The notes under the pieces were generated by a model. It did no database searches. It saw nothing but the letters and a program-made list of their open reading frames with translations, and was not told the DNA's origin. A stretch of DNA of 63,321 nucleotides, filler included, from Nemertoderma westbladi (taxonomy: Eukaryota; Animalia; Xenacoelomorpha), in the NCBI GenBank assembly GCA_032718475.1. It is 3 parts of 3 records of this genome, joined end to end, with 100 filler letters (N's around TTAATTAATTAA, not from the genome) between each part and the next. Parts side by side here need not be neighbours in the genome. Positions count along the whole stretch, not along the records: positions 1 to 29,912 come from JAUCBJ010007836.1; 2 more parts are not named here. The stretch is one strand, 5' to 3'. Position numbers and translations under genes: made by a program. Positions 1-58,507 of the stretch are shown one piece after another (the first letter of the stretch is position 1; every line of letters begins with the position of its first letter).

Positions 1-2060
1 AGTATTTACCGATATTCTTAAAAAGACAATTGTCATAGAATTAAGGATCTTGTGTCCCCAGACATGTTCTGGAATCCAAATATGTCCATTTAATTATCAA
101 ATAATAAAATTTCAGGGAATAAATTTAAATTCATGTCTTTTAATGAATTTAATAAATTGCCATTTTACGCAATTTATAACATTCCCAAAATTCCATTAAT
201 TAATAGATCAAGGGAGCGGAGATTTATATTATTATGCGTATGCGTGTACGAAAGTCTCCCAAACATAGTCAATAGCCGATAAAATTCATAAAGTCATGTA
301 TAAAAACAGGACATTGACTATTAAAGAATACTATTAAATAACATCCCAGATCTGTATGCATTGGAACTACCCTAATTCTACCGCTAGCTTTGCATAATGT
401 CACCATAGCAACAACCACACTAGAATTAGAATTGAGTTAAAAGAACAATAGAAAGCTTGTCCCATTGAATAGCATAGGGAATAAATAGTGCACTGATAGT
501 ATCCAAGGATACATAATAATACAGTGACATTCTGGAAGGCATTGACTAACGGACAAGTGACCCGAGTGTGTGTAATTTGTGACAAGTTGTGTGTGTGGTA
601 TTTGTGAGTTTATAGGTGAATGTTACTGCTAAGGTGTGTTTACAGTAGCTAGTCGCAATCGTAAAAGTAACCTAACTCTCCAAGGAAACCTGAAGTACAT
701 CTAAGCCTTTGGGACGGACAGTTGAGTGACTTGTGCCGGTTGTCGTTGTCGTTGTGCGGCTACGTCGTTGGCGAAAGTACAGCGGCTACGACACATCAGC
801 GCTGAGGATCTCGTACTGTCCGGGGTTGATTGGGGTAGGCAGCGACGCCCGCTCGCCTAAATATAAACTCATTATAATATGGATAAACTCATATATAGCA
901 GATATGACGGAGTTGATAGAAGATGGTCTTGTCATCCTATCGATTTACACAATACGGACTATGTCGACTATATATCCTGCCCAGCGGAGTCGGAACCATA
1001 AACAGAAATTCGAATGCGAAAATTCTATTCGAAATCGACTCGAAAGAAAAGACACTTAAGAAACAAATGGATGCGGTAACTCCAACGTATATTTGGAATT
1101 CTTGATAGAAGCATTGTAACAACAAATAAATATCACCCGCGTTTACCCTACCAGACGTGCGTCTTTGGTATTATTACGATAAATGCCCTAGACCCAACTA
1201 ATAAACGGAAAGACATAAACATCCACGTAAACCGAAACTTGTTGACGTATCACCTATGCTCACTCGGCTCGAACGATCCTGGAGTAAACCTACGATCAGA
1301 GTCCCGGAATACATCGGTCAAACCTCCTCATTCCTTGGTTGGGCCTCAGACCTGCGATCTTGGTGGTGTCGCGGATCCTCGCGGACTGTATTCACTGTTC
1401 AAAGATCTAGTGCTACCCTAACAATTAATCGGTAACACTCCGACAGTGATTTCTAGCTAGCCGCCCATCTTACCTAGCCGGATTGTGACGCGGACACCTA
1501 ATATCACTATCCAACCGTATGGTCGTCCACGCTTAACGCGATACAACCCCTCATCAAGGTGAAGGAGAGCGTTGTACGAAATGAGTTAAGCGCTATTTTA
1601 TAAAGATCGGGGAGGAAACCTGCGTTTGTTCAGATAAACGTAAGTTATCACAGTGAGTCCAATCGATACACGAATTGGCCTTATCTCAATTCGATTGGGA
1701 AATCCAGAATCTCCAAGAAGTTATCGAACTTGGACGATCCTATTTTCTGCGAGAGTTTTTGGATGAACGTATCCAGCTACGAGCGGAGGAAAATCAGCTC
1801 GAGGAGAAGCATATCGAAACGGCAGATACCTCGACCACAATCCTACACCTTCTGATGCAATCATATTGCACCCTTCATCCAGGAGTTATGGCCCTCCTAG
1901 TAAAGTGGCTCCCCCCAAAGAGAAAAAGACTCTTGCTAGCCTCAAAAAACTGCGTAAACGCCGTCTGCGTAAGAAAGACTAACTGTTTAGAGTATCTTTA
2001 TGTTTTAGAAACTGTGATTTTTATATTTTATAGACTGAAAATCCCATTTTCTGGGAGCGG

Positions 2061-2763
2061 TGTAAAAGCCTTTGCTGAATTGCCCCGTTATTTTTATTAT
2101 CTTTTACATTAAAATACTCTGTAGTTGATTTAATAAGTGTAAGAGACCGTATTATTGCTGTATCAGTGTTTTTAGAGGATCTAAGACCTATTTCCTCCGT
2201 ATGTGTACTGTGAAAGGCATATTTTATGATTCTATGGCAATTCGTGACGCAAAAGGGTGATAGCTACTCTTGAACAGTAGTTACTATGACTACGGTTAAC
2301 AGCTGACATTCATACGTGTTGATTTCCTTTGTTCTACGGCGTCTCTCAGTTCAGTCAGCCAATGAGAGCGTTTTTGTGGCTCCTTGTACAGAAAATTTCC
2401 GAGAAATGACGCAATGCCTATGTGCAGTGTTTACATTCAGTCTTGAGCCAAAGAAAGAACGGCTTGGAAGTATTTTGTGCTGTACTGCTTTTTAGTCGTA
2501 CACTAGTAGGTTTAATTATAAAGGGCATATATCCTTTAACTGCAATTTAACATACCTAACGACTACTGCTGACTGATGATCATACATGCTGACTGCTGAA
2601 ACATTGCAAACTCATAACAATCAGTGTTCAGTAGTTATTTTATACTGCTATTTACCGTCAGTTCTTCATAATATGGTTGATGAATTATTATATTTGGAAT
2701 AACGATAAACAACCCCGAAACCCAATGTTCTTGATATACCGAAGGTAAGAGAGAAGGGTTACA
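2061..2763 (+). mobile_element. Putative 3' LTR of an upstream LTR retrotransposon (1-2060 would be its 3' internal region)
   Basis: Purine-rich GGGAGCGG directly before TGTAA (2061). Ends TTACA (2763), giving 5-bp inverted termini. Internal CCAAT and TCAGT-type motifs. No partner LTR in the window. Confidence 0.45.
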
Positions 2764-3372
2764 GATAAACGATTGTGACTTATGTTAAAGTGGTTTGAAG
2801 TGAATCTAATGTTATTTGATAGACCCTACATGAGTCAGCCTGTGTTCCTTTTATATGTGACTAAAATCAGTGAAGATTGGCAGATTAGTGTGCAGTATTG
2901 TGCAGCATTGTGTATGAGTGAGTCTGTTAAAGAAGCAATTCCTAAAGAATGCGCCATATATGTGAATTATAATTAAGCCATATCGTTGTGAGTAGTTTAA
3001 GTCATAACTCTGTTTATATAGGTAAAGCGCCACGTCCTAAAGGAACTGTTAATATTCCCGAAGGTAAATAATATTGTCAGAGATTATATAATACTGTCAG
3101 TCGAATAATACATTAGGCTTACATAGCAATAAAATTAAACCGTCGAACCCAATCTCCCGGGAATATCCAGCGGGTGAATGGTCGCGCACGGATTGGTTTC
3201 GACTAGTGTAGTGAATCAAATAGGCCTACTTGTCATAGACTAAAAACAGATTTAATATCTAGAAGACATCTTAATTTGGTGGGTTAAACTGCCAAAGGTC
3301 TGAAAGCGCGAACATAATTGATTTAGAGGATTTAATTGATTTAACAGATAATACTGGTATTGGTGCTATTAA

Positions 3373-5968
3373 TATGAACGTGGTGGACGTGCATAGCCCG
3401 TCAAAAGAGGGCATGGTAGGCCATGCAGTCAGTAGGCAGGAGATGGGGGGATGAGAGGCCCCAGTGAGGGCCTGGTAGGCCACGTAGTTAGTAGGCAGGA
3501 AGTGGCGGGGTTGAGTCAACCCAGTGAGGGCCTGGTAGGCCACATAGTTAGTAGGCAGGAAGTGGAGGGCCTGGTAGGCCACACAGTAGCAGAGGGAGAG
3601 GCGGGGGTGAATAGACCCAGCCGCAGTGGGGTTAGTGTGTCGACTAGAGAGGGGTGTAGAAGCGAAGTGAGAGATAGTGAAGTAATAGGTGGCGAGTGGG
3701 GGGGGGGGGGGCTACAGGAGCCCCACAACGAGAGATTAGCGGCGAGCAGGTTGGGGGGGGGGGGGCAAAAGAGTGTCCCACAGGCGTCGGCGGATAATGC
3801 GCGGGGCGAATTAGGTGAACCGCAGCACCCGGCGATGGAGAATAGTAGGGGGAGTGCGAGTATCCCCAGTGGCGTGCGATCGAGCAGAGAGAGACAGGTT
3901 GATGTCGCGAGAGGGCGAGCAATGAGACGTCGAGCCCGATCAGAAGAGGGAAGAAGAACAGTGGAGTTTAACCGGGAGGTCGACGAGAGATCTCACGAAC
4001 GGGAACACTGCACTACAGAGAGAAGAAGGGAAGAGAGTAGAAGAAGTGTCGTTGTGAACGACAGGAGAGCGAGGACGGACAGCGAGCCGTCGGTAGTAGA
4101 GATGGAGACGGAGAGTCAGTGTGGTCGAGTTCCAGGAGATTGCCGTCGTCCCGGGGAGACGCGACCTGACGAGGCGTGTTACGCGCAGGGAGAGGGGTAC
4201 AGGATGTACCGGCATGAGGACGAGAGCAGTAGAGGGGATGGAAGAGAAACTCCCCGACGGGATATACCTACCGATCGAGAATACGGTAGCCGCGGGGAGG
4301 ATTATTCGAGAAGGTTGAACTTTGATCCCGAGCGACACATACAGACTGCAGGACATACTGTAGGCCTCACTGCACATACCATAGGCCATGCTGGGAGAGA
4401 TAATGTAGGCGATAGGATAGCATGAATGACGGGATTAAACCCGGAAGTCGCGGAGTACATACCGGCAGGTAGGCCAGAAGTGGATAGGCCTATACCGGTA
4501 CCAGCACAGCAGTATGACTACAGCATGCAAGGACACAACATATATCCAGGGGAGGGGAGAGTTATTGCGGATAGGTGCATGTGCCCCAATATATTAACAT
4601 CAACCCCAGTATCAAACATACCGGTGGGGGGGGGGGGGGCAGGGTGACATTCCCCCATCACAATATCAACAATATACCCCAGTAGGAATAAGATCATCAA
4701 ACCCCTTGGACGAGAATAGATCGTGCGACACTGAAATATGGAGGGGGCCGCTACCCCCAATGATATATCCAAGTCAAAGGAAAGCGGCAGACAGGACGAA
4801 CGGACCGCATCCGACAGGAGAATCTATACAGCATCCATCGAACCCATTGAAAGCACAAGCCATGGGGATGGCCACGTTAATCGATGCATTAAAAACTAGG
4901 ATCGAGTTACCACCCGTGGAACCGTTAAAATTCGATGGAAGTAGGCCGGAAGAATACCTACAGTTTCGGCGCATGTATAGCAATGAGATACTAACGAAGA
5001 ACTTGACACAAGCGGAGTGCCTAAAGTATCTGCAAGTATATACAGGAGGCCAAGCATACGTCATCGTGAGGCAATACCAGGGTATCGAGGGTGGCTTCAC
5101 AACAGCATGGTGGGCACTAGACAGGGAGTACGGGCACCCGGCCAAGATCATCCGGCAGACCCTGAGAGGTATAACCTCGGGTGGCCTACAGGATAACCCC
5201 GTTAGCATAAAGACGTTCGCTAACAAAGTCGAGAAAGCACTAATCGTGCTAAAGACACTGGACGCACCATACAAACTTAATGCATCCAACAACATCACCA
5301 CGATAGCGCAGGCACTGCCGATATGGTTGCGCAATAAGTGGAGAAAGATCGCTTTCTCCACAAGAGACAGGAAGGGTGCGGAACCGGGTTTAGAAGAGAT
5401 GTCGAGCTTCTTGAACTATGAAGCCGAATTAATAACAGACCCAGTCTATAGCGAGGATAGCCTGGGAAAGGCACCAAAGATCGATTACCACAGGCCGAAA
5501 CCAGAACACAACGCATCGAACGCATTACCAAAGCTCAGACAGTCACTGCCGTACGCAGCAACGCAGGGGACTGCCAGTCCACAAGTAGCCGGGGGTAAGA
5601 CCACATCATGGAGCGGACAGGGGAAAAATAACAACACAAATAAACATAACCCCAGCACGCCCAGTAGGCCGAACCCAAACAATAAGAATAGTAGGGACTT
5701 TGGTACGAACATAAGTGCGATATGCAATGCACTTTATAAGGATGGCTACAACCCAAAGAGCAAATGCCAATTACATACAAATGCACTTCATCAGACCATG
5801 AACTGCAGATACTGGCAAGCACTACCCAGGGAAGATCAGGTAGAATACGCGAGAAAAAATGAAATCTGCTCACTATGTGTGATGAGTGGACATAGAGCTA
5901 ACCAATGCAAGGAAACGCCAATCAAGTTGGTCAAAGTAAAGGTCAGACGATGCAAACAAGCACCGTAG
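3373..5968 (+). pseudogene. gag: BEL/Pao gag (broken by a stop at 4423 and frameshifts in G runs)
   Basis: LPPVEPLKFDG..EYLQF..LKYLQVYTGGQA..AWWALDREYG is the BEL gag core. Zn knuckles CQLH..H..C and CSLCVMSGHRANQC. The N-terminus has ~60-bp repeats (EGLVGHxVSRQE). Confidence 0.85.
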
Positions 5969-6309
5969 TGGTGAAGAAAAGAGGAACGGTACTATTAGGG
6001 GTAGTACCAGTAAGGATAATCGGGGAAGGCAAGTCATCAGTAACCACACTGATGCTGGTCGACAGTGGAGCAGCCTTCACCTTGGTCGAGGATTGGGTGG
6101 CCAAAGAGATAGGATTGAGAACGAGGCCAAGTAGAATGGCGGTAACAACCATCTCCAGCAAAGATGAGGTCCTGGAGATGAGGACCGGACGGTGCGCGAT
6201 AGCAGCGATAGCACTGGGATGCGACTATGGGGCGACCATCGACCCCATCCAGGTGATAGAGTCGATAAATATCAATGCCAGGCGGCCCACCAACATCGAG
6301 GTCGAATAG
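5905..6309 (+). pseudogene. BEL/Pao aspartic protease
   Basis: VLLGVVPVRI...LVDSGA active-site motif directly after the gag knuckles. Confidence 0.85.
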
Positions 6310-6348
6310 TACAAATTCCTGGACAGTATCGACTTCTCAATCCCAGAG

Positions 6349-7420
6349 GTGGACGTTAGGAAAGTATCCATTATAGTAGGAATGGACTGTCCGACGGCCC
6401 ACGAGAGAATGCAAACGGTCTTCGGCGAAGACAGGCAGTGTGACCCGGTGGCGATTTTAATCGAAAGCAAGACGGTGGCGAAAGAAGACAAACAGGCTCT
6501 AGAGAGCGTAAAGGAGTCGATGAGATGCGACGAGGGGCGGTATACCATAGGGATAGTATGGAAGCTACCGAAGCTACCGCTACCCGACAATAAGAATGAG
6601 TACATTCATAAGACGATCAAGAAGTATGTTGAGAAAGGATGGGCCGTAGAACTACCGGTCGACGAACCAAACATGGACAGGACCTATTACCTGCCACTCC
6701 ATGTGGCTCTAGACCCGAAGAAAGGTAAACTGCGGATGGTAGTTGACGCATCGGCTAAAACCAACAGCAAATGCCTAAACGATTATCTGCTGGAGGGTCC
6801 CAATATCTACAACTCAGGGATTGAGGTCCTACTCAGATTCAGGAGTAGGAAACACGCTTTTACCTGCGACATCGAAGGCATGTTCAACCAAGTCCGTGTA
6901 ACGGAAGAGGATAGCGACAGTCAGAGCTTCCTATGGTACGACGGCGACGAGGAACCGTCGACCATACCGATGTATAAGATGGTAGTACAGAATATGGGAG
7001 CCAAGTCGTCTTCGTTTACGATGACTGTGGCCGTAAGAGACACAGTGGAGGGGAAGGAAGATAAATATAGCGCCGAAGCCGTCGACATGATTCGACGCGG
7101 CTTCTATGTAGACGATGGGATGGAGACACGGTGGAAACACGGTTAAGAAACTACTGGATATGGGGCACGAGGTTCGCGACATCCTAAAAGGATCCGGGTT
7201 TAACCTAACCAAGTTCCAATCCAGCTCGCAAGAGTTCATGAAAGCTATAGAGGACAGGAGGCCAGAGTCGACCATGGATAATCCCACGACAGCTAAGGGA
7301 CAGGACATGGCGAACAAAAGAGTAGAGTCCCAACAGAAGGCACTAGGGATCGTGTGGAACCGAGAGACAGATGAGTTGAAATACCAGTTGAGCCAGGAGG
7401 GCGCAGACATCCACACAAAA
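6349..7420 (+). pseudogene. pol: BEL/Pao reverse transcriptase, frameshifted near 7130
   Basis: YYLPLH..KLRMVVDAS..CLNDYLLEGP..LLRFR..DIEGMFNQV..FYVDD..GFNLTKF..KALGIVWN..TKR. Confidence 0.92.
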
Positions 7421-7903
7421 AGGGGCTATGTGTCAAAGTGTGAGGGTATCATTAATAGCAGACCGCTATATCCAGAAAATGATGACCCTGAGTCATTAGA
7501 TGTGCTGACGCCCAGTCATTTTCTAATGGAAAGGCCAGCAACCATCGACATGCGGGGTGTAGACCCAGACAACATACACTCCCACCAGAGTTGGAAAGTC
7601 GCTAAGGCGATAAGCGCAGAGTATTGGAGGAGGTGGGTCGAGGAGTATCTACCCACGCTTCATAGGAGAAGCAAGTAGAGAAATACAAACAGGGAGTTAA
7701 AGGAGGGTGATCTGGTGATCGTCCCGGACGATACCATCATCAACAACCAGTGGCGGTTGGCGAGAGTTGTGGGCACTTACTCCGATGAGGACGGAAGAGT
7801 CCAATCGGTAGAAGTGTGGATAGGTGGCAAGATAGGAGCGAAAGATAGGAAGACCTACAGGAGAGCTGTAGGGAAGTGTTGCCTCTTAGAGGGAGCACCT
7901 TAG
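7421..7903 (+). pseudogene. BEL/Pao integrase C-terminal remnant
   Basis: EGIINSRPL..LTPSHFL..YWRRWVEEYL..RSK*(W)..GDLV..WRLARVV..DGRVQSVEV. RNase H and the integrase N-terminus/core are missing. Confidence 0.88.
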
Positions 7904-8039
7904 TCGAGTAGAGTTTAGTCGTCCAAGCATTGGACTGAGGGGGGTGGGATTGAGGGTGAGACGCCCTTCCCACACATAAAAATAAAAAAAAATAAAAAAT
8001 AGTACATAATAGGTACGCAGTAAGTAGGCAGATAGAAGT

Positions 8040-8665
8040 TAGTTAGTGGAGTTAGTTAAGTAGTAAGAGGGTACATAGTACCGTTAGTTAGATAGTGGAG
8101 TCAGTCAAGTAGTAAGAGGGTACGTAGCACCGTTAGTTAGTTAGTGGAGTTAGAGGTTAGTAAGAGGGTACGTAGTACCGTTAGTTAGTTAGTGGAGTTA
8201 GAGGTTAGTAAGAGGGTACATAGTACCGTTAGTTAGTTAGTGGGAGTTAGAGATCAGTAAGAGGGTACGTAGTACCATTAGTTAGTTAGTGGGAGTTAGA
8301 GGTCAGTAAGAGGGTACGTAGTACCGATTAGTAAGAGTTAGTTAGAGGTCAGTAAGAGGGTACGTAGTACTGATTAGTAAGAGTTAGTTAGAAGTTAGTA
8401 AGAGGGTACGTAGTACCGATTAGTAAAAGTTAGTTAGAAGTTAGTAAGAGGGTACGTAGTACCGATTAGTAAGAGTTAGTTAGAGGTCAGTAAGAGGGTA
8501 CATAGTACCGATTAGTAAGAGTTAGTTAGAAGTTAGTAAGAGGGTACGTAGGACCGATTAGTAAGAGTTAGTTAGAGGTCAGTAAGAGGGTACGTAGTAC
8601 CAATTAGTAAGAGTTAGTTAGAGGTCAGTAAGAGGGTACGTAGTACCGATTAGTAAGAGTTAGTG
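8040..8665 (+). repeat. ~46-49-bp tandem repeat (13 copies) inside the BEL element
   Basis: Unit agtaagagggtacgtagtaccgattagtaagagttagttagaggtc, with an internal GGTAC-RTA-GTACC hairpin. Confidence 0.95.
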
Positions 8666-9138
8666 GTAGAAGGGTATGTATAATATAAATATTAATTAGT
8701 AGCGAGTAGCGAGAGGGGGGCACGTGAGTACAGCTGGATAGATCGTGTAGGCCACGCGACGCATACTGCTGTACTGCACTAGCCCGCAGAGTAGGCCAGA
8801 ATGTGGATTATAAAGTAGAATAATCCATTGGCAGAAGTAGTAGCACAGTAGTAGGATTAGATTAAATATTACAAATAGAATAGGGCTAGAAAATTAACAA
8901 ATTATGGTAACAGTAGAGAAAATATTCTGGAACATAATTAAAGTAACGGACAAAATTGCAATTTAGGGTACAATTTGACAGTTTAGAAATTATGTAGTGT
9001 AAATTAGGCTATAACTCAGAAATTCTGCGAGTGATAGGCCATTTTCGAACTGATTAAAACATCCTAACTTTATCACTCATCCGTAAAGTGCCTTGGCAAG
9101 GCACCACCTAACGGGTGAGCGATTGGGGAGAGTTTGAG

Positions 9139-11674
9139 ATGGCGGAGAGACTTGTCCGAAAGAGAAAGGCGGGGCTAGGAGGAAAGGAGATACTGGTGGA
9201 TTTCACCGAGAGGCATCTGGAAGAGAAGACCCGGGGATACTACGAACGGTTGGAGAGGGGTCACGAAGCGCGACCGCTGCAGGACCATTTCAGAGAGATG
9301 CACGAACAGCGACTGGTTGGGACCTACGGGACACCGTCGCTAGACAACGCCATCTTCGAGCATTTCCACTACGTAGTGAAAGGAGACGAAGCGAAGTTCG
9401 GGATTCCGAAGTACGCAAGAGAGCCACCGAGAAAGGATTGGAAGAGGTTCGTAGAGTCCATCAGCAGAGGAGGATATATGGTCCTAGATGATGAGGGGAC
9501 CGTGAAAGACGAGGAGGGTTCGAGGAGAGGATCGGCAGGGTCGGCCAGAACCATACTCCTACATTTGGCCGCGCCAAATGGGGATATATTCCTATTCGAT
9601 CTAGGGACGTATGGAAAGAAGGATGGGCCGAAGTTGAACCGGTTGCCGAAGGCGGTGCAAACCCTTGTGAGGGAGAAGTCGACGACGAAAGTGGGATCGG
9701 CGATTCGCGACGATGCGGAGAGAATCATCGGTCCGGACACCCCCAACCTCCTGGACATGCAGACGGTCTACATGGCTATGACAGCACCAGACGGGTTGGG
9801 ACTAGTGGAGAACTCAGGCCATTGCGGAGCGGTGCCAATGGGCCAGCTAATGGGGCTCGTGTGTCACAAACCAATGGACTGGAGTAAGTTCAGAGAGGAG
9901 TACGGAGCGGAGTTGGCGAACTCGCTGAAGTGGGGAGCGAGGCTAGGGAAACAAGAGGTGTATCAATTCTGGAGAGGAGCGGTAAAGGTATATCAGAAGC
10001 AATATATCCTGCAGGAGGACTGGATAATGATAGGTTTGCTTAACCTATTCATGACCGTCATCATTGAGAAAGAACCGATGGCATTCCTGCTATCGGGATC
10101 ACCCCTGAGCTACAGAAGAGCCTTCAAGACGGCTTTCGAGGGTCTTGTAGACCACCCAGGGCTGAAGGGCGAGTCGGTGTACTATAACCACCGACATCTG
10201 GTAGACAGGGAGGTAGATACGCCGTATCAGAGATGGGAGCAGCTAGAGGCGGATAGACGAGAAGCGAAGCGATTGGAAGAAATCGCTAGACAGGAGAGGA
10301 GAGAAGCAGAAGAAAGGGAGGAGGAAGCTAGGGCGCAGAGTTACAGCTTCGAGGAACAGGCGGCCTTAGACGAACTTCGTTGGACATAGTCAGGGAGTTC
10401 GGGGGAGTCTCTAGGGCGAGAATTAGGGTGGACGGTGGGATCACCGAAACAGTCGACATCGGGATTGCAGACAACGCCCATACCAGCGGGCACCGAGGGC
10501 GATCACCCTCTAAGGAGGCTAGGGGAGCTGGAAGGATGGAAAGTCACGAGCGAGAGCCAAGGTGGGAAGGGACACAGTGGGTCCACCGGGATACCGGGGT
10601 TGGAACCACTCCCGGAGGAGGACGAGGATGACGACGAGTTCGGAGAGATGCTGCCCATCGGGAGGATAGGCCACTCGGACACGGACTAGGTTGGCGGGAG
10701 GGTGGTGATGGCCAGTGGGGCGAGAGCCTTCTGGGACAAACCCGGCAAGCGGGCCTGGGTGCACGAGGAGCCGGCGATGGATTTCGTGGGGAGCACTATC
10801 AGGTTGGGCGAGCAACCGGGGACAGCACCACGGGTAGTATTCGGGGAGACGATGCCCGGAAGGGGCGAGGAGATCGACGTGGACAGGGACGCTAACGTCC
10901 AGAAGTTCGCTTACCAGTGACTCCACAGACCGCGGAGATCGCTTGGGACGAAAGACGACGTGGGGTGGGAGACAGACCCACCAGGAAAGAAGCTGTTTGT
11001 ACCGGTTCCAGAAAGGAACTAGTCGTCTCTACTGCCGCGAGTCGAGCCACAGGATGGGGGCGTGTCCATGGTTGCACAACCGGTGTTTGAAGTGCAACTT
11101 CCGGGGGCACTACGGACGCCAGTGCGACTGGATGGACGATGAAGAGAAGTTTAGGATCTTCGAGGAGTGGGCCGATGTCGGGGCCATGACTCGGCAACGT
11201 ATGAAGGCCCAGGAGTTCCGGTTGGGCTTCTTTAATATCAATCAGGAGGCCCACTTGGAGATCATCAAATGGAGACTTCCGTTTACCTACCAGGAAGTAG
11301 CGACGGCGGCGTCGTATGCCGGGGTGATAAATACGCAGAGGTATTTGGACAGGTGGACGCCACAGAACAGAGGGGAGTTCAGAGATTTCTTGACGGAGCA
11401 TGTGCCGCGGGCGATGAAAGTGATCCTATGGGACGCCACCAGGGGGAGACAACAGGGCCACTCGGAGGGGCCACCCGCGAAGCGATACCAGGAGCTAATA
11501 ACACCAGCGCCCAAGGAGTCGATAACCGGGATTAGTAGAGAGGTGGCGGCGAGGGTCAGGAGCCTGAAGGGAGATAAGACCAAAGGAGCGGCAGCGGCCA
11601 GGAAGCGACCAAGGGAGGAGGACGACAGAGGGAAAGAGTTGAGATGGTTCCCAAAGTCAGGAGGAACGAACTAG
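9139..11674 (+). pseudogene. Extra retroelement ORF: DEDDy-type 3'-5' exonuclease + coiled coil + CCHC zinc knuckles
   Basis: ExoI VLDDEG, LLHLA..IFLFD, LPKAVQTLV..KVGSAIRDD (ExoII), LLDMQ and QKQYILQED (ExoIII-like). ORFs 9115, 10435 and 10702 share a frame across two TAG stops. After a frameshift near 10920: (R)LYCRESSHRMGAC and CLKCNFRGHYGRQC. Confidence 0.75.
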
Positions 11675-12375
11675 ACTTCGATGCAACATGCCTGGAAGGC
11701 ACCACGTGAGACGTGCGAACTCCTAAGTACAAATTCAAATAATTTAAATAATTGAAAAGTGCAATTAGTATGTACGTACGTAAAAGATCATTAAGTAAAT
11801 ATAAACGAAGTAAGTACTATAGTCATGCGCCCTTTCTCAATTAGCTACTGGGTTCAATCTACTGGCTACAATCTACTAATTGACTATGACAGACAAGACA
11901 TTGGACGACATCACACTTCTTGAGTGCGACGGCACAGGAGGGGGGTGAGACTCGTTGGGAGTAAATAGGCTGAGATGAGGGTTGAGTAATAGTGCGGAGA
12001 GAGTGTGGGTGCAATTCAAGTGTGGGGGGGGGGGAGAGGCAAGAGGCAGAGTGAGGGACGAAGAGGTCTGAGAGTACGGGAGAGTTAGAGTGGAAGTGGA
12101 ACGGAGTTAGAGTGGTGTGAGTATTGGGGAAACAAAAGTCGTGTGAGAGAAGCGCACGATCGGCCCAACATGGGACGCCAGATGTCTTGATACAAGATAG
12201 GTAGAGTTGTACCAAGACGGGGTAGCAATATCATACCCATAGGGAGCGGCCTGGAAAGCCGGCTCTGAGAAAAATAGCCCCACCCCACACCCGATGGTAG
12301 ATCGGGATCCAGCGGAATTGTAGCGCACTATAGGTGGATGCTATCTTTTCACCGGGAAGATAGCATGGGGGGGAG

Positions 12376-12942
12376 TGTTAGCGAATTCAATTCCGCTAGT
12401 CACCCCATAACGTGAGCTTTAAGCAATATTGGAACTACAAGTTTGATTACCAATCAACCTTGTATCACCCCAATAAGCGGGGCGACAAACCCCAAAGGGA
12501 CACACACAGCGGGGATCAGAGGTTACACCTCCGGGAGGGAGAGAGTGACAGTAGCGGGGGGAAGCACTCCCAGAGAGATGGGAGGGCGAGAAGTGAGTTA
12601 TTAGCCAATGGGGGGAAGGCATCCACTGAGTAATGTAATACGGCCAACCAGTGCAATATATATTACCAGTTACTATGTCATTTCATTTACTTTAGTTAGT
12701 CAGTTCAGTTAGGGTAGTACGGTAACTCTTAACACAGTCTACTGCCGCCATCATTCACTTTACTTTAGTTAATCAATTACCATCTGACTGTGTCTACACT
12801 TTATCCATTTAACGTTTATATTATACATATATTGGAGAATTAACAACATCAGAACTCTCAAACGATCCTTTCACATACACACGGCGGGGACGCGTAGTTA
12901 AGATAACCGGATAAATCGGGATCCTTGGTGGATCCCGTCACA
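12376..12942 (+). mobile_element. 3' LTR of the BEL/Pao element
   Basis: PPT GGGGGGGAG (12367-12375) then TGTTAG. Ends ...GTCACA before an abrupt switch to AT-rich DNA. An alternative end is TAACA at 12845. Confidence 0.65.
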
Positions 12943-13256
12943 AGTTTGTTTTTTATGTTTATGTTATATGATAACTATTATTTTCGTGTCGGCGTGAAAT
13001 AATAGGCCATAAAAAAAAGTAAATTGAATGCTGGGCTACAGAGTACTATTTTTTACGAAATGAAGTACCACTATCAATAACAATCTAAAAATCACTAACT
13101 TTTGCCACAATTCTGTATACAGCCCAGCCCCAGTGTACCATTATTATAAACTAACGTTTTGAACCAAATAAATAATGTTTCTATAATAAATATAGAGTTC
13201 CTGGTAATTATCTCAATGAATTTATGGGAAGAGAAAATCAAAATCAAAAGCTATAA

Positions 13257-15436
13257 TTATACAAAAGTTAAAATCAATTCGTCGCGCCTTGATGTATCCC
13301 CTTGAATGATGTTTACAATAGGATCGTTATTGGCATTCTCAAAATCATTAGTTACCAGAGTATCGACGATTTCGTGGCGGGGTGAAATTATCCAATTGAG
13401 CAAATTAGCACACGCTTTCACAATTTCACCTGCAAGTGCTGGATTCTTTACCGTAAGGTATCGTAGACACTGAAAACGGCTCTTCAAAATACCAAACGTA
13501 CACTCTATCATTCTACGCATTCTCTTGTGGTGCACATTGAAACGATTCTAGGCATCGGAGGTAGTGTTGATAAGGTAAGGAAGGAAGCAGGACAATTCGG
13601 TCCCGGACAATTCGGTCCAGACAATTCGGTCCCGGACAATTTGGTCCTGAACAATTCGTTCCCATTAATTTTGTGTTTTGGGACCGAATTGTCCGGGACC
13701 TAATTGTCTGGGACCGAATTGTTCGGGACCGAATTGTCCGGATACTGATAAGGACAATTCGGTCCCAAAACATGCATATTAATGGGACCGAATTGTCCGG
13801 GACCGAATTGTCCAGGACCGAATTGTCTGGGACAGAATTGTCCGGTGCCGAATTGTCCGGGACCGAATTGTCCGGGACCGAATTGTCCGGGACCGAATAG
13901 TCCGGGACCGAATTGTCCGGGACCGAATAATCCGGGACCGAATTGTCCGGGACCAAATTTAATTGGTACCGGTACTATATAATGGTGAATATTCTAGAAC
14001 CTTAAAAGATATTACTATATGGTAGCTAGTGTTTTTTTTTTACTAACTAGTATTTTTTTTAAGATAAAAAAACAACTTTACTTATTATTAGTTATGGTAG
14101 CTATGGTGTTTTTATGGTGCTGGTGAATTATTTACAGTGCAGGCCACCAGAAAACGCAGATTTGTTCAAATGTGAACACATTTGATCAAATGTGTACCAG
14201 TGTAATGTAATGTTGTTGAACGGGACAATTGAACATAATTGAACATATTTGATTGGCAAGAACCAAAATTTTTTCGCCAAAGGATACATTTGAATACTTT
14301 TGAAACAATTTGTAATCTGGAAACTCTCTGCAGTTTGCCGCGAACTGTCACTCACTGCAGCTGGAAATGCGATAAGGATTTTGTTTACCTTTATAGTGTG
14401 CGGTTAATAGTGTCTAGAAGGTCTATGGTCTATAGTTTGTGATGTTAAGGCATCTTCTGGTGTTTCTCTGTGCCCTCTCGGTGTCAGACTAATGGCGCGA
14501 CATCTCTCTGCACTAAATTATTTATGCAAAGGTCTAGGCTCCTCCATCCATATACCCACCCACTCCCATACACTCCCATACATTCCATGAATCTCCATGT
14601 GGTCTTGTATGTAGTTCTATCTCTACCAATACAGCCCATGTAGGGGCTCTCTTATCTACCTGATATCAGGCATACAGGCGCACCGCACACAAAGCTTTAG
14701 TCTGTCCCAGCAAGTCAGCCTCCTGCCGTGTGAGGTACTAGTGTGTTATAGGTACACCCCCCCCCCCCCCCCTCAAATTTTTTTTACTAGCTGTGTTAAG
14801 ACTACTGTTAGTCAATACGCGCGAATAGTGGGCTTTTCCAGGCCAGCGAGCAGATACGTAGTTTATCTTGTAATCCACAAACCATTAGCGCGTTCATGGA
14901 ATGCTGCCTAGTGCCTATATGGCGGTATGGCGGTACTGGGTGCCACTATTGGGATGGGTGTTCCAACGGCACAGCCACATACCGATGGCACTTGGGAATG
15001 GGTAATATTCTGGAATTTCTGAGCCAGACTAAGTCTGGCAGCACTTTCTTCGGGCCAGTCAACAAATTCAGTGAACAGCTGTTCCACTATGACTTTGGTG
15101 ACTGGCCACAAAGCGGCTAACTGTTGATTTCGATGGTCCATTGGAATCAGCGATTGTCAGCATGTTGTAACCAGTTGAATAATAGCGTAAAGCTATGAGA
15201 ACCTGTTGCCGCGACAACAGGGCATAGTTGCGGTAAGTGGGGTGGTTCAAGTATGCTCCAATTCTTTCGATGAGATTATTCAATTGTTGGCCAGTCAAAT
15301 GGAATCGCTTCATGAAATTAGATTCAGGGACGAACTGGGCGGCACATCGAATGCTAAGTGCCTCCTCCTCATTCCAAGATTTTTCATCGTCACTAGAAGA
15401 GCCTTGCAAAAAGTCGGTGGAACTATCTAAATTCAT
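13257..15436 (-). pseudogene. PIF/Harbinger (HARBI1-like DDE) transposase, fragmented and interrupted at ~13575-14780
   Basis: FMKRFHLT..QQVLIALRYYSTG..SKSTVSR; VCGCAVGTPIPI (decayed GCIDGTHI); HSMNALMVC..ARWPGKAHYSRVL; FNVHHKRMRRMIECTFGILKSRFQCL. Confidence 0.85.
13583..13955. repeat. Foldback-type array of 15-bp repeats in alternating orientation
   Basis: Blocks of (ggacaattcggtccc)n and (gggaccgaattgtcc)n, inserted in the Harbinger ORF. Confidence 0.85.
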
Positions 15437-16924
15437 TGTAAATTTGATTGTAATTACAGTATTATTAGTAAAATTTTTATCTTGAATAAAAAAATGTTAT
15501 TAATTAATGTTTAAGTTCTGCATCCGTGATATTATTCTAAAAGTAGATGAAAATGAAATAAAATATTTAAATTAATTCTTACCGGCATTTATCCTCACGA
15601 ATAATGCAACAAACAGCATCAGGTTTAGTAATAACATTTTTGTTATGAAAGGTTCATCGATACGTTACGATCAAACGTTAGGTTGCCCCTCAATTATTGC
15701 GTTGAGTTGTTGCGGGTTGCGGATTGTCGAGCCTGCAAATTAGTAATTGTTATTTAATTTAAAGTATTTGGCTTTTAATTGTCTCTGTTTGAATAACTTC
15801 CACACTATATGAACTATAAGTGCGATACTTTCCTTCAACAACCCAGACTGGCCTACACTAACCCAGACTGAACCATATCAACACAGACTGACCTCTACAC
15901 GAACCCCAGACTAACGTTCACCAACCCCAGAGCAACACCTACTCTAAAGCCAGATTAACTACACAAACAACGCGATGCACATACGAATATTCCAATGCCA
16001 GGATGCCAACCCATAATGACCTATGTACACTTACCAGACTAACACCAACTAACACAAACCAACCCGAAAAGATTAGGGGAATCTATAGATTCCGTTTCTG
16101 GCTAAAATTATCGACCCTGGCATTTCGTTAGCAGATTTCACAAATATAAAATCAAGCGGATAGGTATATTCAACCGCAATATTCTCAGATTAACTTTCAG
16201 AGAACACATAATGTTGTGTAGCGTCCTAACAATGTAATACTACAGAAAAACCACGTTGGAGTATCTAAAGCACAATTATTACTGTAGCATGTCAGGTGTT
16301 GTATAGGTGCGTGTATTTAACGTATTGATTAATAATGTGAACCAGCGGTCATTTAATATTTAGGGCGGATAATGACGTGGTACCAATGCCAATGCCTAAT
16401 GACGATTGTAACAATGCCTATTGTGTATATCTATCTAGTGTTGTAATAGAAAAATACTAACCTCGTAGGAAAGCTAAATAACGTTAGTTGTGATCCACGA
16501 AATTTTGGAAATGAATTCAATCTACGCTATACAGCTTTCTTTTACTGGAGGAAAGTCTTACACTGCAGCTCCTCCTAAAATATTAACCAATAACGAAGCT
16601 GGCCATCATTGTTAGGAAAACGTATGCTGCATCCTTATTGGTTGTGTCGAAAATGAATAATACAGTACTACACAATTCAACAACTTTTCTGCCACGTGTC
16701 ATCAAATGTAAAATGGAACAGCCAAAGATTTCATGGAACATCAAGGAACCGCAGCATAGAGTTAGCTTTTTAAATTTTATATAGAAACAATTTTTTTGTT
16801 TTTAGTTTTCTGTTCCACTGTCCAATGCAAAGCAGCAGCTTGATCGATAGCTGACAATCCTGGGGGAATTTCCAATTAAGAAGCCCTCACCCCTGGTTCG
16901 TGTGGCAGCATCGTTTGGGCATAG

Positions 16925-23224: not shown

Positions 23225-24180
23225 TATTGACAAAAATAATATCTGGAATAAATGATGATGATCTAAGAGAGAACAATTTCTAAACTTATGATGATCCGAC
23301 ACCAGATGACATTTTAAAAGTGTGTCGGGCACGTGAGCAGTCGCCCCGCGATGCAACTGGAGCGGAGCTGCATCCAAAACTAACAAAATTACCAGTTGGC
23401 ATTCCGGTACCAATAACCAGCCTACTAGCGCACAACACCGTGGCAGACAAAAATACTATTCCCGTCCTCGGGGCAACAATTCACGGACCCCTTCAAAGAA
23501 CCGTGAACAATCTACATCTAGGACATCATACCCAAGATGTTTTACCAGCCACCCCCACAGTGAGTGCCCACATCGTAATAGCACTTGCCATGGCTGTGGT
23601 AGTAAGGGTCATATAACCCCAGTGTGTGGAAAAAAATGCTCGGGTTCTATAAACCAATCCTTCACCCACTCCCTTAAGTCAGGTTCCGATTGCGATAGCT
23701 CCATTGCGACAGAATTCTATTCCTCCCAAGGAAACTTTTCCATCCCAAACAAACATAGTTCGTCATGATGAACCCAGCTCATTTATTTACACAATGGGCA
23801 CTGAAATCTTTTATACGGCTTCCCCAAAGCCACCACGATTGCATGTATCTATCTCCTGCCATGGAATTATTTTTTCATGTCCCACCATTGCTGATACAGG
23901 AGCCGATGATACCACAATATCATCTAATATAGTTGAAATTCATGGTTTAACCAAATATGTTGATCCTAATGACAAAATTCCACTAATTGCTGCCAACAGC
24001 ACCCCTATGAAGTGCACCGGATCAAACTCCATCCATATCATAAATATCAGCTATTTTGAACGTTTGATACATACAGTGGCTTATGGGACACCTGATTTCT
24101 CAGTGGATTCCTAATGTCTTTTGATGTTTGTAGACAACATGGACTCACAGCACCAGAATTCCCAATTCCTGACTATATTA
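23225..24180 (+). pseudogene. Ty3/gypsy-like gag-protease relic
   Basis: GINDDDLR gag-like motif, knuckle CHGCGSKGHITPVC at ~23587, protease IADTGAD..PLIAANSTPMKCTG. Frameshifted. Confidence 0.65.
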
Positions 24181-24279
24181 CTGCCCGTAAGGGGCACACA
24201 CGCATTGTTAAATATACTCCGAGTCATTTTTCTTAGTTTAGTTTATACGTACTTATGCTACGGGATCATTGTATGGGGA

Positions 24280-24797
24280 AGTTTCCTAAGGTGGTTCTGA
24301 TTGTGTGCTACTCTCCAACTAGTGTTGCCCCTGTAGAGGAGGTGGAAAATTTCTACCACAATCTACAAGCAGCTACTGATGGAGTGGATCAGCATGCATT
24401 CTTAACATTCCTGGGAGACTTTAATGCAAGTCTGCATCAATCACCTACATCGCCCTGGGTCTATAGCAATAGTGTTAACCGAAATTCTGTCCATCTTCAG
24501 GATTTTATCTCTGGAAATGGATTGGTTTCGGCTGGAACCCAGTTCAAGAAGCGAACTGGAAAGCTATGGACTCATAGTGGACCCAGTGGTCACAAGTCCC
24601 AGATAGACCATATTCTGTTTCGCAGGAAATACAGGAGCTCTATACAAGACTGTAATGCATTTACACTTCGACCCTTCTCCAGTGATCACCGCCTTATTGT
24701 GGCCAAGGTAAGACTTAGTCTGCGTGCTAGCAGAGCAACGAAATCTGCCTTGCCGCGGCATGACTGGTCCTCTCTGTTGCAACAGCCAAGTGTAAGA
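24280..24797 (+). pseudogene. Non-LTR retrotransposon AP endonuclease fragment (RTE-like)
   Basis: CYSPT..FY..LGDFNA..N..WT..SQIDHIL..SDHRL. Truncated by the satellite. Confidence 0.88.
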
Positions 24798-27700
24798 GGC
24801 GTTTGGTACAGATGGGATAGTGAATGGGACAGTTGGTAGGCATTTGGTACAGGGATAGTGTATGGGACAATTGCTAGGCGTTTGGTACAGAAGGGATAGT
24901 GTGTGGGACAGTTGGTAGGCGTTTGGTACAGATGGGATAGTGTGTGTGACAGTTGGTAGGCATTTGGTACATGGATAGTGTATGGGGCACGTGGTTGGCG
25001 TTTGGTTCAGTTGGGATATTGTAAGGGGCAATTGGTTTGCGTTTGGTTCAGATGGTTTATTGTATGAGGCACTTTTTGGGCGTGCGTTTAGTACAGACGT
25101 GATATTGTATGGGGCAATTTGTGGGCGTTTGATTCAGTAGGTATATTGTATGGGGCAATTGGTGAGCGTTTGGTACAGATGGAATGTTGTATGGGGCACT
25201 TGGTTGGCGTTTGGTACAGATGGGATATTGTATGGGGCAATTGGTGGGCGTTTGGTACAGATGGTATATTGTATGGGGCACTTGGTGGGCGTTTGGTACA
25301 GATGGGATAGTATGTGGGACAGTTGGTAGGCGTTTGGTACAGATGGGATAGTGAATGGGACAGTTGGTAGGCGTTTGGCACAGGGATAGTGTATGGGGCA
25401 CTTGGTTTGAGTTTGGTTCAGTTGGCATATTGTATGGGGCAATTGGTGGGCGTTTGGTACAGGGATAGTGGGTGGGACAGTTTGTAGGCATTTGGTACAT
25501 GGATAGTGTATGGGGCACTTGGTTGGCGTTTGGTTCAGTTGGGATATTGTATGGGACAGTTGGTAGGTGTTTGGTACAGATGGGATAGTGTATGGTACAT
25601 TTGGTAGGCGTTTGGTACAGATGGGATATTGTATGGGATAGGTGGTAGGCGTTTGGTACAGATGGGATAGTGTATGGGACAGTTGGTAGGCGTTGGGCAC
25701 AGGGATAGTGTATGGGGCACTTGGTTTGAGTTTGGTTCAGTTGGCATATTGTATGGGGCAATTGGTGGGCGTTTGGTACAGGGATAGTGTGTGGGACAGT
25801 TTGTAGGCGTTTGGTACAATGATAGTGTGTGGGACAGTTGGTAGGCGTTTGGTACATGGATAGTATGTGGGACAGTTGGTAGGCGTTTGGTACAGATGGG
25901 ATATTGTGTGGGACAGTTGGTAGGCGTTTGGTACAGATGGGATAGTATGTGGGACAGTTGGTAGGCGTTTGGTACAGATGGGATAGTGAATGGGACAGTT
26001 GGTAGGCATTTGGTACAGGGATAGTGTATGGGACAATTGCTAGGCGTCTGGTACAGAAGGGATAGTGTGTGGGACAGTTGGTAGGCGTTTGGTACAGATG
26101 GGATAGTGTGTGGGACAGTTGGTAGGCATTTGGTACATGGATAGTGTATGGGGCACGTGGTTGGCGTTTGGTTCAGTTGGGATATTGTAAGGGGCAATTG
26201 GTTTGCGTTTGGTTCAGATGGTTTATTGTATGAGGCACTTTTTGGGCGTGCGTTTAGTACAGACGTGATATTGTATGGGGCAATTGGTGGGCGTTTGATT
26301 CAGTAGGTATATTGTATGGGGCAATTGGTGAGCGTTTGGTACAGATGGGATGTTGTATGGGGCACTTGGTTGGCGTTTGGTACAGATGGGATATTGTATG
26401 GGGCAATTGGTGGGCGTTTGGTACAGATGGTATATTGTATGGGGCACTTGGTGGGCGTTTGGTACATATGGTATAATGTATGGGGCACATGGTGGGCGTT
26501 TAGTACAGATGGGATATTTAATGGGGCAATTGGTGTGCGTTTGGTACAGATGGTATATTGTATGGGGCACTTGGTGGGCGTTTGGTAAAGATGGGATATT
26601 GTTTGGGTCAATTGATGGGCGTTTGTTACAGGCGGGGTAGTATATGGTAGAGTTGGTAGGCGTTTGGAACAGATGAGATAGTGTATGGGGCAATTGGTGG
26701 GCGTTTGGTGCAGGTGGGGAAGTATATGGTACAGTTGTTGCGCGTTTGGTACAGATGGTATATTGTATGGGGCACTTGGTGGGCGATTGGTAAAGATGGT
26801 ATATTGTATGGGGCAATTGGTGGGCGTTTGGTTCAGATGGGATATTGTAAGGGGCAATTGGTTGGCGTTTGGTTCAGATGGTTTATTGTATGGGGCACTT
26901 TTTGGGCGTGCGTTTAGTACAGACGGGATATTGAATGGGGCAATTGGTGGGCGTTTGATTCAGTAGGTATATTGTATGGGGCAATTGGTGAGCGTTTGGT
27001 ACAGATGGGATATTGTATGGGGCACTTGGTTGGCGTTTGGTACAGATGGGATATTGTATGGGGCAATTGGTGGGCGTTTGGTACAGATGGTATATTGTAT
27101 GGGGCACTTGGTGGGCGTTTGGTACATATGGTATAATGTATGGGGCACATGGTGGGCGTTTAGTACAGATGGGATATTTTATGGGGCAATTGATGTGCGT
27201 TTGGTACAGATGGTATATTGTATGGGGCACTTGGTGGGCGTTTGGTAAAGATGGGATATTGTTTGGGTCAATTGATAGGCGTTTGTTACAGGCGGGGTAG
27301 TATATGGTAGAGTTGGTAGGCGTTTGGTACAGATGAGATAGTGTATGGGGCAATTGGTGGGCGTTTGGTGCAGGTGGGGAAGTATATGGTACAGTTGTTG
27401 CGCGTTTGGTACAGATGGTATATTGTATGGGGCACTTGGTGGGCGTTTGTACATATAGGATATTGTATGGGGCACATGGTGGGCGTTTCGTACAGATGGG
27501 ATATTTTATGGGGCAATTGGTGTGCGTTTGGTACAGATGGTATATTGTATGGGGCACTTGGTGGGCGATTGGTAAAGATGGTATATTGTATGGGGCAATT
27601 GGTGGGCGTTTGGTTCAGATGGGATATTGTATGGGGCAATTGGTGGGCGTTTGGTACAGATGGTATATTGTATGGGGCACTTGGTGGGAGTTTGGTATAG

Positions 27701-29912: not shown

Positions 29913-30012
29913 NNNNNNNNNNNNNNNNNNNNNNNNNNNNNNNNNNNNNNNNNNNNTTAATTAATTAANNNNNNNNNNNNNNNNNNNNNNNNNNNNNNNN
30001 NNNNNNNNNNNN
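29913..30012. other. Artificial contig spacer
   Basis: N44 + TTAATTAATTAA (stops in all six frames) + N44 = 100 bp. Confidence 0.97.
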
Positions 30013-34295: not shown

Positions 34296-35495
34296 ACTCA
34301 GATACTTGCGCTACGGAGACTGATTAAGTCAAAGTAATCTCCCCGCAGTCATGACTTTTGTGGACTTCAAGAAGGCATTCGGCTCCATCCATAGAGGTAA
34401 AATGCTTGAAATCCTAAGAGCTTATGGAATACCAGAAGTAATTGTTGCTGGCATTGGATTGTTATATTGTGACACAGAAGCACAGGTACTCTCACCAGAT
34501 GGTGAAACTGAGTTTTTCTCAATCCTGGCTGGCGTACTGCAAGGTGACACATTAGCACCATTACTATTTGTAATTGTGCTGGATTACGCAATGAGGACGG
34601 CCACAAAAGGTGAAGATCTGGGATTCACACTTCAAGAGCGCAGAAGTAGTAGATATCCGGCAACTACAATCACAGAGACAGACTTTGCGGATGACATCGC
34701 CCTGCTCTCTAATACCCTAGCATATGCACAGCTTCTACTAAATAAAGTGGAGAGGGCTGCTAAGGAGGTTGGATTGCATATAAATGCTACCAAGACCGAA
34801 TTCATGACCTTTAATGTTGATGGAAACTTAACAACCATTGATAATAATCAAAAAAAGGAAGGTCGATGACTTCCAGTTCCTTGGATCATGGATAGAAGAG
34901 AGTAGCAAAAAGGACATAGAAGTTAGGAAAGCAAAGGCTTGGGTAGCTCTATCAAAAATGGATACCATCTGGAAATCAGATCTCTCCAGGCAACTGAAGA
35001 CTAAGTTCTTTCGAGCCACAGTGGAAAGTGTATTTTTATACGGGGGTGAGACCTGGACACTGACTAAATCACTTGAACAACGAATTGATGGTTGCTACAC
35101 AAGACAACTAAGGGCAGCCCTAAACATCAGCTGGAGACAACACATGACAAACGCCGAGCTTTATGGTACACTACCACCTGTATCAACCACCCTCCGTGAA
35201 CGCAGATTAAGATTCAGTGGCCACTGCTGGCGAAGTAAAGACGAGGTCATACCAGATCTACTTCTCTGGCAACCAACTCATGGAAAGCGTAGTCGTGGAC
35301 GACCTGCCATAACATATATAGATCAACTTGAAAGGGATACTGAACTTGGGAGAAACGAAATTGCGACAACTATGGAGAATCGGGAAGCCTGGAAGGATCT
35401 CATTTCCACTGTCCGAGTTCGCTCGACCTAGTAGTAGTTGGAGAATCGGGAAGCCTGGAAGGATCTCATTTCCACTGTCTGAGTTCGCTCGACTA
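34296..35495 (+). mobile_element. 5'-truncated RTE-clade LINE (RT), one frameshift, duplicated 3' end
   Basis: FVDFKKAF, GVLQGDTLAPLLF, FADDIAL, FQFLGS, RRLRFSGH; (TAG)n tail. ~66 bp at 35373-35438 is repeated immediately after. Confidence 0.92.
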
Positions 35496-58407: not shown

Positions 58408-58507
58408 NNNNNNNNNNNNNNNNNNNNNNNNNNNNNNNNNNNNNNNNNNNNTTAATTAATTAANNNNNNNNNNNNNNNNNNNNNNNNNNNNNNNNNNNNN
58501 NNNNNNN
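58408..58507. other. Artificial contig spacer
   Basis: N44 + TTAATTAATTAA + N44. Confidence 0.97.

Follow-up and report, generated by a model that had tools for sequence, protein, structure and literature searches.

In the genome of the xenacoelomorph Nemertoderma westbladi (GCA_032718475.1), a BEL/Pao retrotransposon carries, between pol and the polypurine tract, a third open reading frame (ORF3) predicted to encode a DEDD-type exonuclease-like domain followed by two zinc knuckles, and other copies of this abundant family keep ORF3 as one long coding frame across the first two stops seen here. The element lies in the window, i.e., the whole stretch of 63,321 nucleotides that was analysed, and its features are collected in Table 1. 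The type of cargo is itself known from DNA transposons and from the Gypsy-like elements of rotifers, and BEL/Pao is added here as a further host; also new are the added knuckles and the selection acting on the frame.

The BEL/Pao element and its borders

The preliminary description named BEL/Pao as the host element, and this identity is supported by the order of domains along the element, DUF1759, protease, reverse transcriptase (RT), and DUF5641, which is the BEL/Pao gag-pol order minus the deleted parts; we take DUF1759 and DUF5641 to be marks of BEL/Pao. Pfam matches in pol comprise the protease (PF13650, E 1.4e-6), PF18701 (E 3.5e-9 and 2.3e-5), and a weak RVT_1 (E 0.04-0.07). In addition, three of the six RT and integrase motifs taken from the window, LLRFR, DIEGMF, and INSRPL, occur 126, 6, and 102 times, respectively, in a domain file that contains BEL/Pao only, with no Gypsy or Copia control (PMC3118150). 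A search for gag homologues among longer proteins gave no match. BEL/Pao elements have a primer-binding site for tRNA-Arg or tRNA-Gly, and the TGG stretch at 3277 is a candidate for such a site.

This copy is dead, since it has lost RNase H and the integrase core near 7435 and its pol carries stops and one frameshift, which, together with deletions, fall in the RT. Apparent internal deletions of gag-pol are seen at ~5925, ~6460, and ~7435, and a contig from the public DNA run X5 matches only 5927-6460, with different sequence on either side. Conceivably, ORF3 persists in a deleted, non-autonomous subfamily.

Past pol, the order is the purine run at 7937, the 46-bp array, an AT-rich spacer, ORF3, a 3' region, the polypurine tract, and TGT. 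The ORF had been described as preceding a polypurine tract and an LTR; the tract is present, whereas the label LTR at 12376 is presumptive because the window holds no second LTR copy. Neither is there a second copy of 1-3268 within the window. Contig depth nevertheless suggests LTR parts at both ends of the element. Summed contig depth in run X1, which does not equal copy number, is 3.3e5-1.4e6 over 1-3600, far above gag-pol, and 29 X1 records among the contigs placed on 1-13500 overrun the stretch ends. In X1-X3, every depth bin (450 bases) up to 13050 is at least 6,772 deep; depth climbs in the bin 12151-12600 and drops to the single-copy level of 9-33 beyond 13050, with unique contigs starting at 12913. 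This depth pattern suggests that a long 5' LTR may close with 1-3268 and that a truncated 3' LTR may begin at 12376. If so, the LTR would exceed 3.3 kb, and its depth, 10-30 times that of the internal region, would resemble many solo LTRs. A short 3' LTR at 12376-12734 (359 bp, TGTTA...TAACA) would be a tenable alternative. Placement of ORF3 inside an LTR is ruled out, its depth being under that of gag-pol rather than over it.

Table 1 Features of the BEL/Pao element (all coordinates are positions in the window).
Feature	Position	Strand	Remarks
High-copy repeat with terminal ACA	1..3268	+	Putative 3' portion of a long 5' LTR beginning before the window
Primer-binding-site-like TGG stretch	3277..3294	+	Candidate tRNA primer site, from sequence
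gag remains	3436..5968	+	Low-complexity N-terminus; DUF1759 (PF03564, E 1e-9); CCHC knuckle at 5867
pol remains	5902..7882	+	Aspartic protease, RT, integrase C-terminal DUF5641
First purine run	7937..7949	+	Directly after pol; possibly an ancestral polypurine tract
46-bp tandem array, 13.2 copies	8049..8664	+	pol-ORF3 spacer; TRF
ORF3, 845 codons	9139..11674	+	Broken by stops at 10387, 10687, and 10918, plus a frameshift near 11000-11060
DEDDy-like 3'-5' exonuclease domain, WRN/EXD type (predicted)	9424..10098	+	D117, E119, D192, Y289, E293
E/R-rich charged segment	10219..10353	+	51% E+R+K over aa 361-405; putative helix/coiled coil
Low-complexity linker	10390..11019	+	ORF3 frame; codon-level constraint in the family
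Tandem CX2CX4HX4C zinc knuckles	11024..11125	+	Spacing of six residues; knuckle 1 is without its first Cys in this copy
Polypurine tract	12367..12375	+	From sequence; TGT next at 12376
Presumed 3' LTR start (TGT...)	12376..12942	+	Probably truncated; repeat DNA stops near 12942

The ORF3 reading frame in this copy and in the family

A sense-strand ORF of about 845 residues between pol and the polypurine tract had been proposed, and the span from the ATG at 9139 to the stop at 11674 indeed amounts to 845.3 codons. In this copy, the frame starting at 9139 is open for 416 residues before the first of its three stops. The zinc knuckles sit one frame over, in a stretch open from 10838 to 11674 that has no ATG upstream of them. 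A codon model trained on the first ORF3 piece, gag, and RT favours the first frame to about 11020, including across the linker, and the second from about 11065, placing the switch near 11000-11060. The purine fraction is 0.62-0.64 in ORF3, 0.59-0.61 in gag and pol, and 0.50 in the flank, and the bias of the + strand begins at the primer-binding-site-like stretch. While these values agree with the earlier statement that the purine bias of the ORF matches gag-pol, the bias is a mark of the element and not of coding, because the non-coding spacer and 3' region are equally biased. At ~9442 (ORF3 aa 101), an X5 contig departs from this copy with 86 letters remaining, and the alignment to the WRN-type profile described below has a gap of 15 residues at the same place; possibly, a small in-frame deletion lies there in this copy.

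Contigs of four public DNA runs were placed on positions 1-13500 (X1 and X3 represent one sample; three studies), and the ORF is present in five of the six public runs listed. The summed contig depth in X1, again not a measure of copy number, is 14,156-45,003 over ORF3 vs 33,031-83,002 over gag-pol, with 21 in the flank. ORF3 reaches only about half the depth of gag-pol, so that part of the family may have no ORF3 or a divergent version of it. Contigs that differ from this copy by about 10%, and therefore represent other copies, lead from the spacer into the beginning of ORF3 (8732-8942, 8783-9017, and 8959-9172), and a divergent contig at 11494-11821 crosses the ORF3 end into the 3' region. 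Short joints from 8047 to 8627 (X2 and X3) and from 8188 to 8750 (X3), with 22-24 letters on the short side, connect the pol side with the spacer, and the 46-bp array is mostly skipped in other copies. No single contig covers pol through ORF3 among the mapped runs, and the linkage between them is thus a chain of pieces.

These data support that ORF3 belongs to the BEL/Pao family, being part of a high-copy repeat that runs from pol to the element end. The preliminary description had made its reading depend on finding the ORF in other family copies, and the high depth over ORF3 and the divergent contigs at its two ends, along with the rarity of its first two stops, bear this out. It is highly improbable that ORF3 is a separate high-copy element, or a host-gene fragment, inserted into this one copy. 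Such an insertion would agree with a window without paired LTRs and with pol and ORF3 never sharing a contig; the 450-base depth bins might mask a junction of two repeats, and a purine tract is already present after pol. Yet, the strand and purine bias of the segment agree with the element, no terminal repeats, transposase, or RT were found in the segment, and the divergent multi-copy contigs and the joints bridge both spacers.

In each of X1, X2, and X3, ~99% of depth is free of the stops at 10387 and 10687. A survey of variants over 9990-10930 in these three runs gave 80 variant places, 40 of which are listed. Among those listed, 22 of the 40 fall at the third codon position vs 11.7 expected after adjustment for base and CpG context (p 5e-4). 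The listed places that vary between other copies show this pattern (17 of 26 at the third position, p 1.3e-4), while the changes private to this copy do not (5 of 14, p 0.37). It is the linker that drives the signal, with 12 of its 15 listed polymorphic places at the third position (p 7e-5); before the first stop the count is 5 of 11, which is not significant (p 0.21), in a survey that starts past most of the nuclease core. Two contigs run without gaps through 10825-10930; the third stop lies at the edge of the surveyed stretch and the frameshift beyond it. The near absence of the first two stops from other copies and the third-position variation, mostly in the linker, indicate that a single long coding frame is maintained across these stops in the family. 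Probably, its product is a single fused protein that includes the knuckles.

The exonuclease-like domain and the zinc knuckles

Sequence searches found no homologue of ORF3. Pfam gave no domain match even at E 10, leaving ORF3 below the PF01612 cut-off, and a PDB sequence search gave none. No relatives were found in 5.8 billion proteins, nor among 1.84 billion representatives, where the one match, of 33 residues to a bacterial TPR protein, is due to chance. Metagenome and viral contigs held no homologue, and the prokaryote genomes yielded only an 18-residue match to the charged helix. In the ESM Atlas (recognition 2418), the best scores, 0.93 and 0.92, belong to two unnamed basidiomycete clusters. 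The best named cluster scores 0.92 with 171 shared features; its commonest taxon is Rotifera, and PF01612 is carried by only 19% of its members. Overall, 24 of the 30 Atlas matches fall in the PF01612 set. The Atlas features (0.92) are independent support for an RNase H-like DEDD fold.

Profiles built from bacterial PF01612 members were compared with ORF3. A first one, from 40 frames of an NrnC and RNase D mix of which many were in the wrong frame, scored -1.1 bits, and a two-sequence WRN-type profile scored -0.2 bits. The third one tried, a WRN-type profile picked for the KVG motif that it shares with ORF3, was built from 48 of 50 loci, two being dropped for stops, and its seed matches WRN exonuclease (E 3e-11). 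This profile gave 7.8 bits against ORF3 (E 1.2e-4), ranking first of 1002 in a set that included 1000 shuffles and the reversed protein. In hhalign, the score was 28.9 over 69 columns, and none of 113 shuffles scored as high. A global alignment control was not significant: ORF3 matched 8 of the 16 invariant columns, a count that 15 of 150 shuffles also reached; one of the eight, W278, is probably private to this copy, as nearly all other copies differ at its place (9970).

Exo I, II, and III align in order with the bacterial columns, and D117, E119, and D192, which provide the Exo I D-x-E and the Exo II D, as well as K184, Q286, and Y289, fall on invariant columns, while identity to the bacterial members is 14-23%. 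The motifs named in the preliminary description, DxE, KVG..I.DD, D.Q, and Q..Y, are found as D117-x-E119 (9487), KVGSAIRDD (9688-9714), DMQ (9754), and Q286..Y289. The last part of that series, Y...D, is off by one: Exo III reads Y289-x3-E293 with Asp at 294, as read from this copy. The domain is classed as DEDDy-like because the strict Y-x3-D is lacking. The earlier label DEDDy exonuclease is partly supported, for the DEDD type by the Atlas and the WRN-type profile, and not for the strict signature, as the fourth acidic residue here is Glu.

A structural check by AlphaFold had also been proposed. The single-sequence model gave no usable fold (pLDDT 35.7). A model guided by bacterial exonuclease rows reached pLDDT 70 and pTM 0.67, and the PDB matches listed for it are all DEDD nucleases: trypanosome RNase D, Egalitarian, Nibbler, EXD2, and EXD1. 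Giant-virus exonucleases match it as well. As the model used exonuclease rows, these matches are circular and show compatibility only. Very probably, the N-terminal domain has a WRN/EXD-type exonuclease (DEDD) fold, and the strength of the DEDD assignment is moderate, not strong.

That ORF3 is a real accessory gene whose exonuclease likeness is due to chance or only partial, or that nuclease and knuckles are two genes, appears improbable. The lack of database homologues and the non-significant global control speak for this reading, and the third stop and the frameshift may be family-wide. It is opposed by the Atlas and two profile tests, which converge on one family, by the frame preserved across the first two stops, and by the knuckle frame, which has no upstream ATG. 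Catalytic activity with Glu as the fourth ligand is somewhat more probable than inactivity. An RNA-binding adaptor without catalytic activity, comparable to EXD1 or Egalitarian, which would route the element RNA uncut, e.g., to the germline, seems rather unlikely: the Glu in place of Asp and the very low identity to active enzymes would suit it, and Egl is reported to carry HeT-A particles in Drosophila (PMC6114517), but an acidic residue is retained at each of the four metal-ligand positions, as is the Tyr, and rotifer ORF3s with one Asp replaced by Glu are considered intact (PMC5408684).

At the C-terminal end, one intact and one decayed knuckle had been reported, as is the case here: the CX2CX4HX4C at 11084 is intact, and its partner at 11024 misses the first Cys, at a place where 100% of depth in all four runs is unlike this copy. 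Intact CX2CX4HX4C motifs occur only three times in the 69,996 six-frame codons of 1-35000, the other two being in gag (5867) and in the remnant of another element. In the ESM Atlas, the C-terminal piece matched zf-CCHC (0.84), which is a lead only. Retroviral-type knuckles bind single-stranded RNA, and the knuckles of ORF3 are predicted to do so as well. The E/R-rich stretch noted earlier is likewise present between nuclease and linker (Table 1). No membrane anchor was seen in ORF3, where the top 19-residue hydropathy, 1.47, lies inside the last helix of the nuclease, and there are no NxS/T N-glycosylation sites across the ORF3 pieces. On these two grounds, an env role for ORF3 is ruled out.

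Known systems and possible functions

That DEDDy cargo occurs in retroelements of bdelloid rotifers, as had been noted, agrees with PMC5408684: there, the LTR retrotransposons Juno and Vesta carry a DEDDy ORF3 in which DEDD has become DEED, shared with Terminons and proposed to act in 3'-end processing. DEDDy domains of Athena/Terminons are also described in PMC6431247. Like these, the ORF3 described here is a sense-strand third ORF that follows pol and replaces env, is RNase D/WRN-like, has one Asp replaced by Glu, and has a mostly rotifer cluster as its nearest named Atlas match. In contrast, the rotifer elements are Gypsy-like and the host element here is BEL/Pao, and the substitution is DEED there and DEDE here, a comparison made by description and not by sequence. 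Also, ORF3 here has ~845 codons with a charged helix, a linker, and two knuckles, whereas the accessible part of the rotifer paper describes the DEDDy ORFs as lacking coiled-coil and TM domains and makes no mention of tandem CX2CX4HX4C (PMC5408684). Two DNA transposons likewise bear a DEDD exonuclease for proposed 3'-end processing: Dada of Laccaria and Ectocarpus, with a DEDDy domain within the transposase and all four DEDD residues present (PMC3706591), and KolobokD, with a DEDDh-type exonuclease (PMC9587614). As the nearest Atlas clusters are mostly from rotifers and basidiomycetes, taxa with reported transposon-borne DEDDy domains, the data suggest that ORF3 may stem from a pool of DEDD domains shared by transposons. 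Capture of the domain from a host EXD or Nibbler gene is conjectural.

Within BEL/Pao, env is the sole third gene given in the ICTV Belpaoviridae profile (PMC8742986) and the only one in the accessible part of PMC3118150, where the word exonuclease is absent. The element shares with env-bearing Belpaoviridae the order of gag, pol, and a third gene ahead of the polypurine tract, and differs in a third gene without membrane segment or glycosylation site. It is also larger: the stated sizes are 4.2-10 kb for the element and 0.2-1.2 kb for the LTR (PMC8742986), whereas 12.4 kb separate the window start from the 3' LTR with pol partly missing, and the LTR would be oversize if 1-3268 is one. No BEL/Pao element with exonuclease cargo, and no DEDDy cargo with tandem knuckles, was found in the literature searched; such a family may be recorded in sources beyond it (Repbase, GyDB, subscription journals, or bioRxiv supplements). 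With the cellular PF01612 proteins WRN-exo, EXD2, Nibbler (mut-7), EXD1, and Egalitarian, ORF3 shares the motif order DxE, L(Q/H)LA, KxG...D, and Q..Y, yet it differs in falling below Pfam detection, in ~30 additional residues between Exo II and Exo III, and in being knuckle-fused and mobile.

The ORF3 of sister copies, which is under codon-level selection, probably gives one protein with a WRN/EXD-type 3'-5' exonuclease in front and two knuckles further back. Through the knuckles, the nuclease would be tethered to the RNA of its own element, and the tethered nuclease would trim the 3' ends of element RNA or new cDNA inside the ribonucleoprotein or particle of the element. Such RNA-tethered trimming is our tentative preference, held with less than even confidence; it is the simplest reading because the nuclease is joined via a long conserved linker to two RNA-binding-type knuckles. 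The tandem knuckles hint at an RNA-tethered enzyme, and the N-terminal domain, being free of stops, makes the question of the substrate testable.

It appears quite improbable that the enzyme serves in cDNA proofreading, with an unusually large BEL/Pao lineage packaging an exonuclease and nucleocapsid-like knuckles and editing the nascent 3' end of the cDNA. If true, ORF3 would assist reverse transcriptase by proofreading or end repair, like the zinc-finger ExoN of nidoviruses, which allowed nidovirus genomes to grow.

A less probable alternative to tethered trimming is that the exonuclease-knuckle protein works in trans, attacking small RNAs of the host or the precursors of these (piRNA or siRNA 3' ends), and so weakens the silencing of the family. 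The family is very abundant, the long linker held in frame is scaffold-like, and Nibbler, EXD1, and Egalitarian are among the solved folds nearest to the guided model, in a comparison that is circular. However, 2'-O-methylation makes mature piRNAs resistant to trimming at the 3' end. Arenavirus ExoN is reported to suppress innate immunity (PMC7968707), which favours an action on host silencing, but rotifer ORF3 type has no clear relation to copy number (PMC5408684).

The abundance of a family under frame selection also matters in view of the rotifer study, which reports neutral variation in the sequenced env and GDSL ORF3s and could not show selection for its ORF3s (PMC5408684). Repeated independent uptake of DEDD nucleases by retroelements points to an unsolved step of their life cycle, which may be the processing of 3' ends, the editing of cDNA, or escape from silencing by small RNAs.

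Several other sequences surround the element in the window. Remains of a Harbinger-like transposase (DDE_Tnp_4, E 1e-7) lie on the - strand at 13260-13547 and 15071-15496 and are split by an element whose 15-bp repeats form inverted arrays at 13590-13959. At 32319-34073, a frame of 584 residues combines ankyrin repeats and BRCT, split by a long 7-residue Gly/Pro/Thr repeat, presumably a BARD1-like layout. About 228 copies of an 81-bp satellite, 94-100% alike, extend from 35777 to ~54400. The stretches 29913-30012 and 58408-58507, each consisting of 44 N, TTAATTAATTAA, and 44 N, are artefactual joining filler. Finally, four fragments of other retroelements, labelled by eye, are found at 23586-24114, 24237-24839, 34324-35431, and 61210-61848, and comprise a knuckle with a protease-like frame as well as endonuclease- and RT-like frames of non-LTR type.
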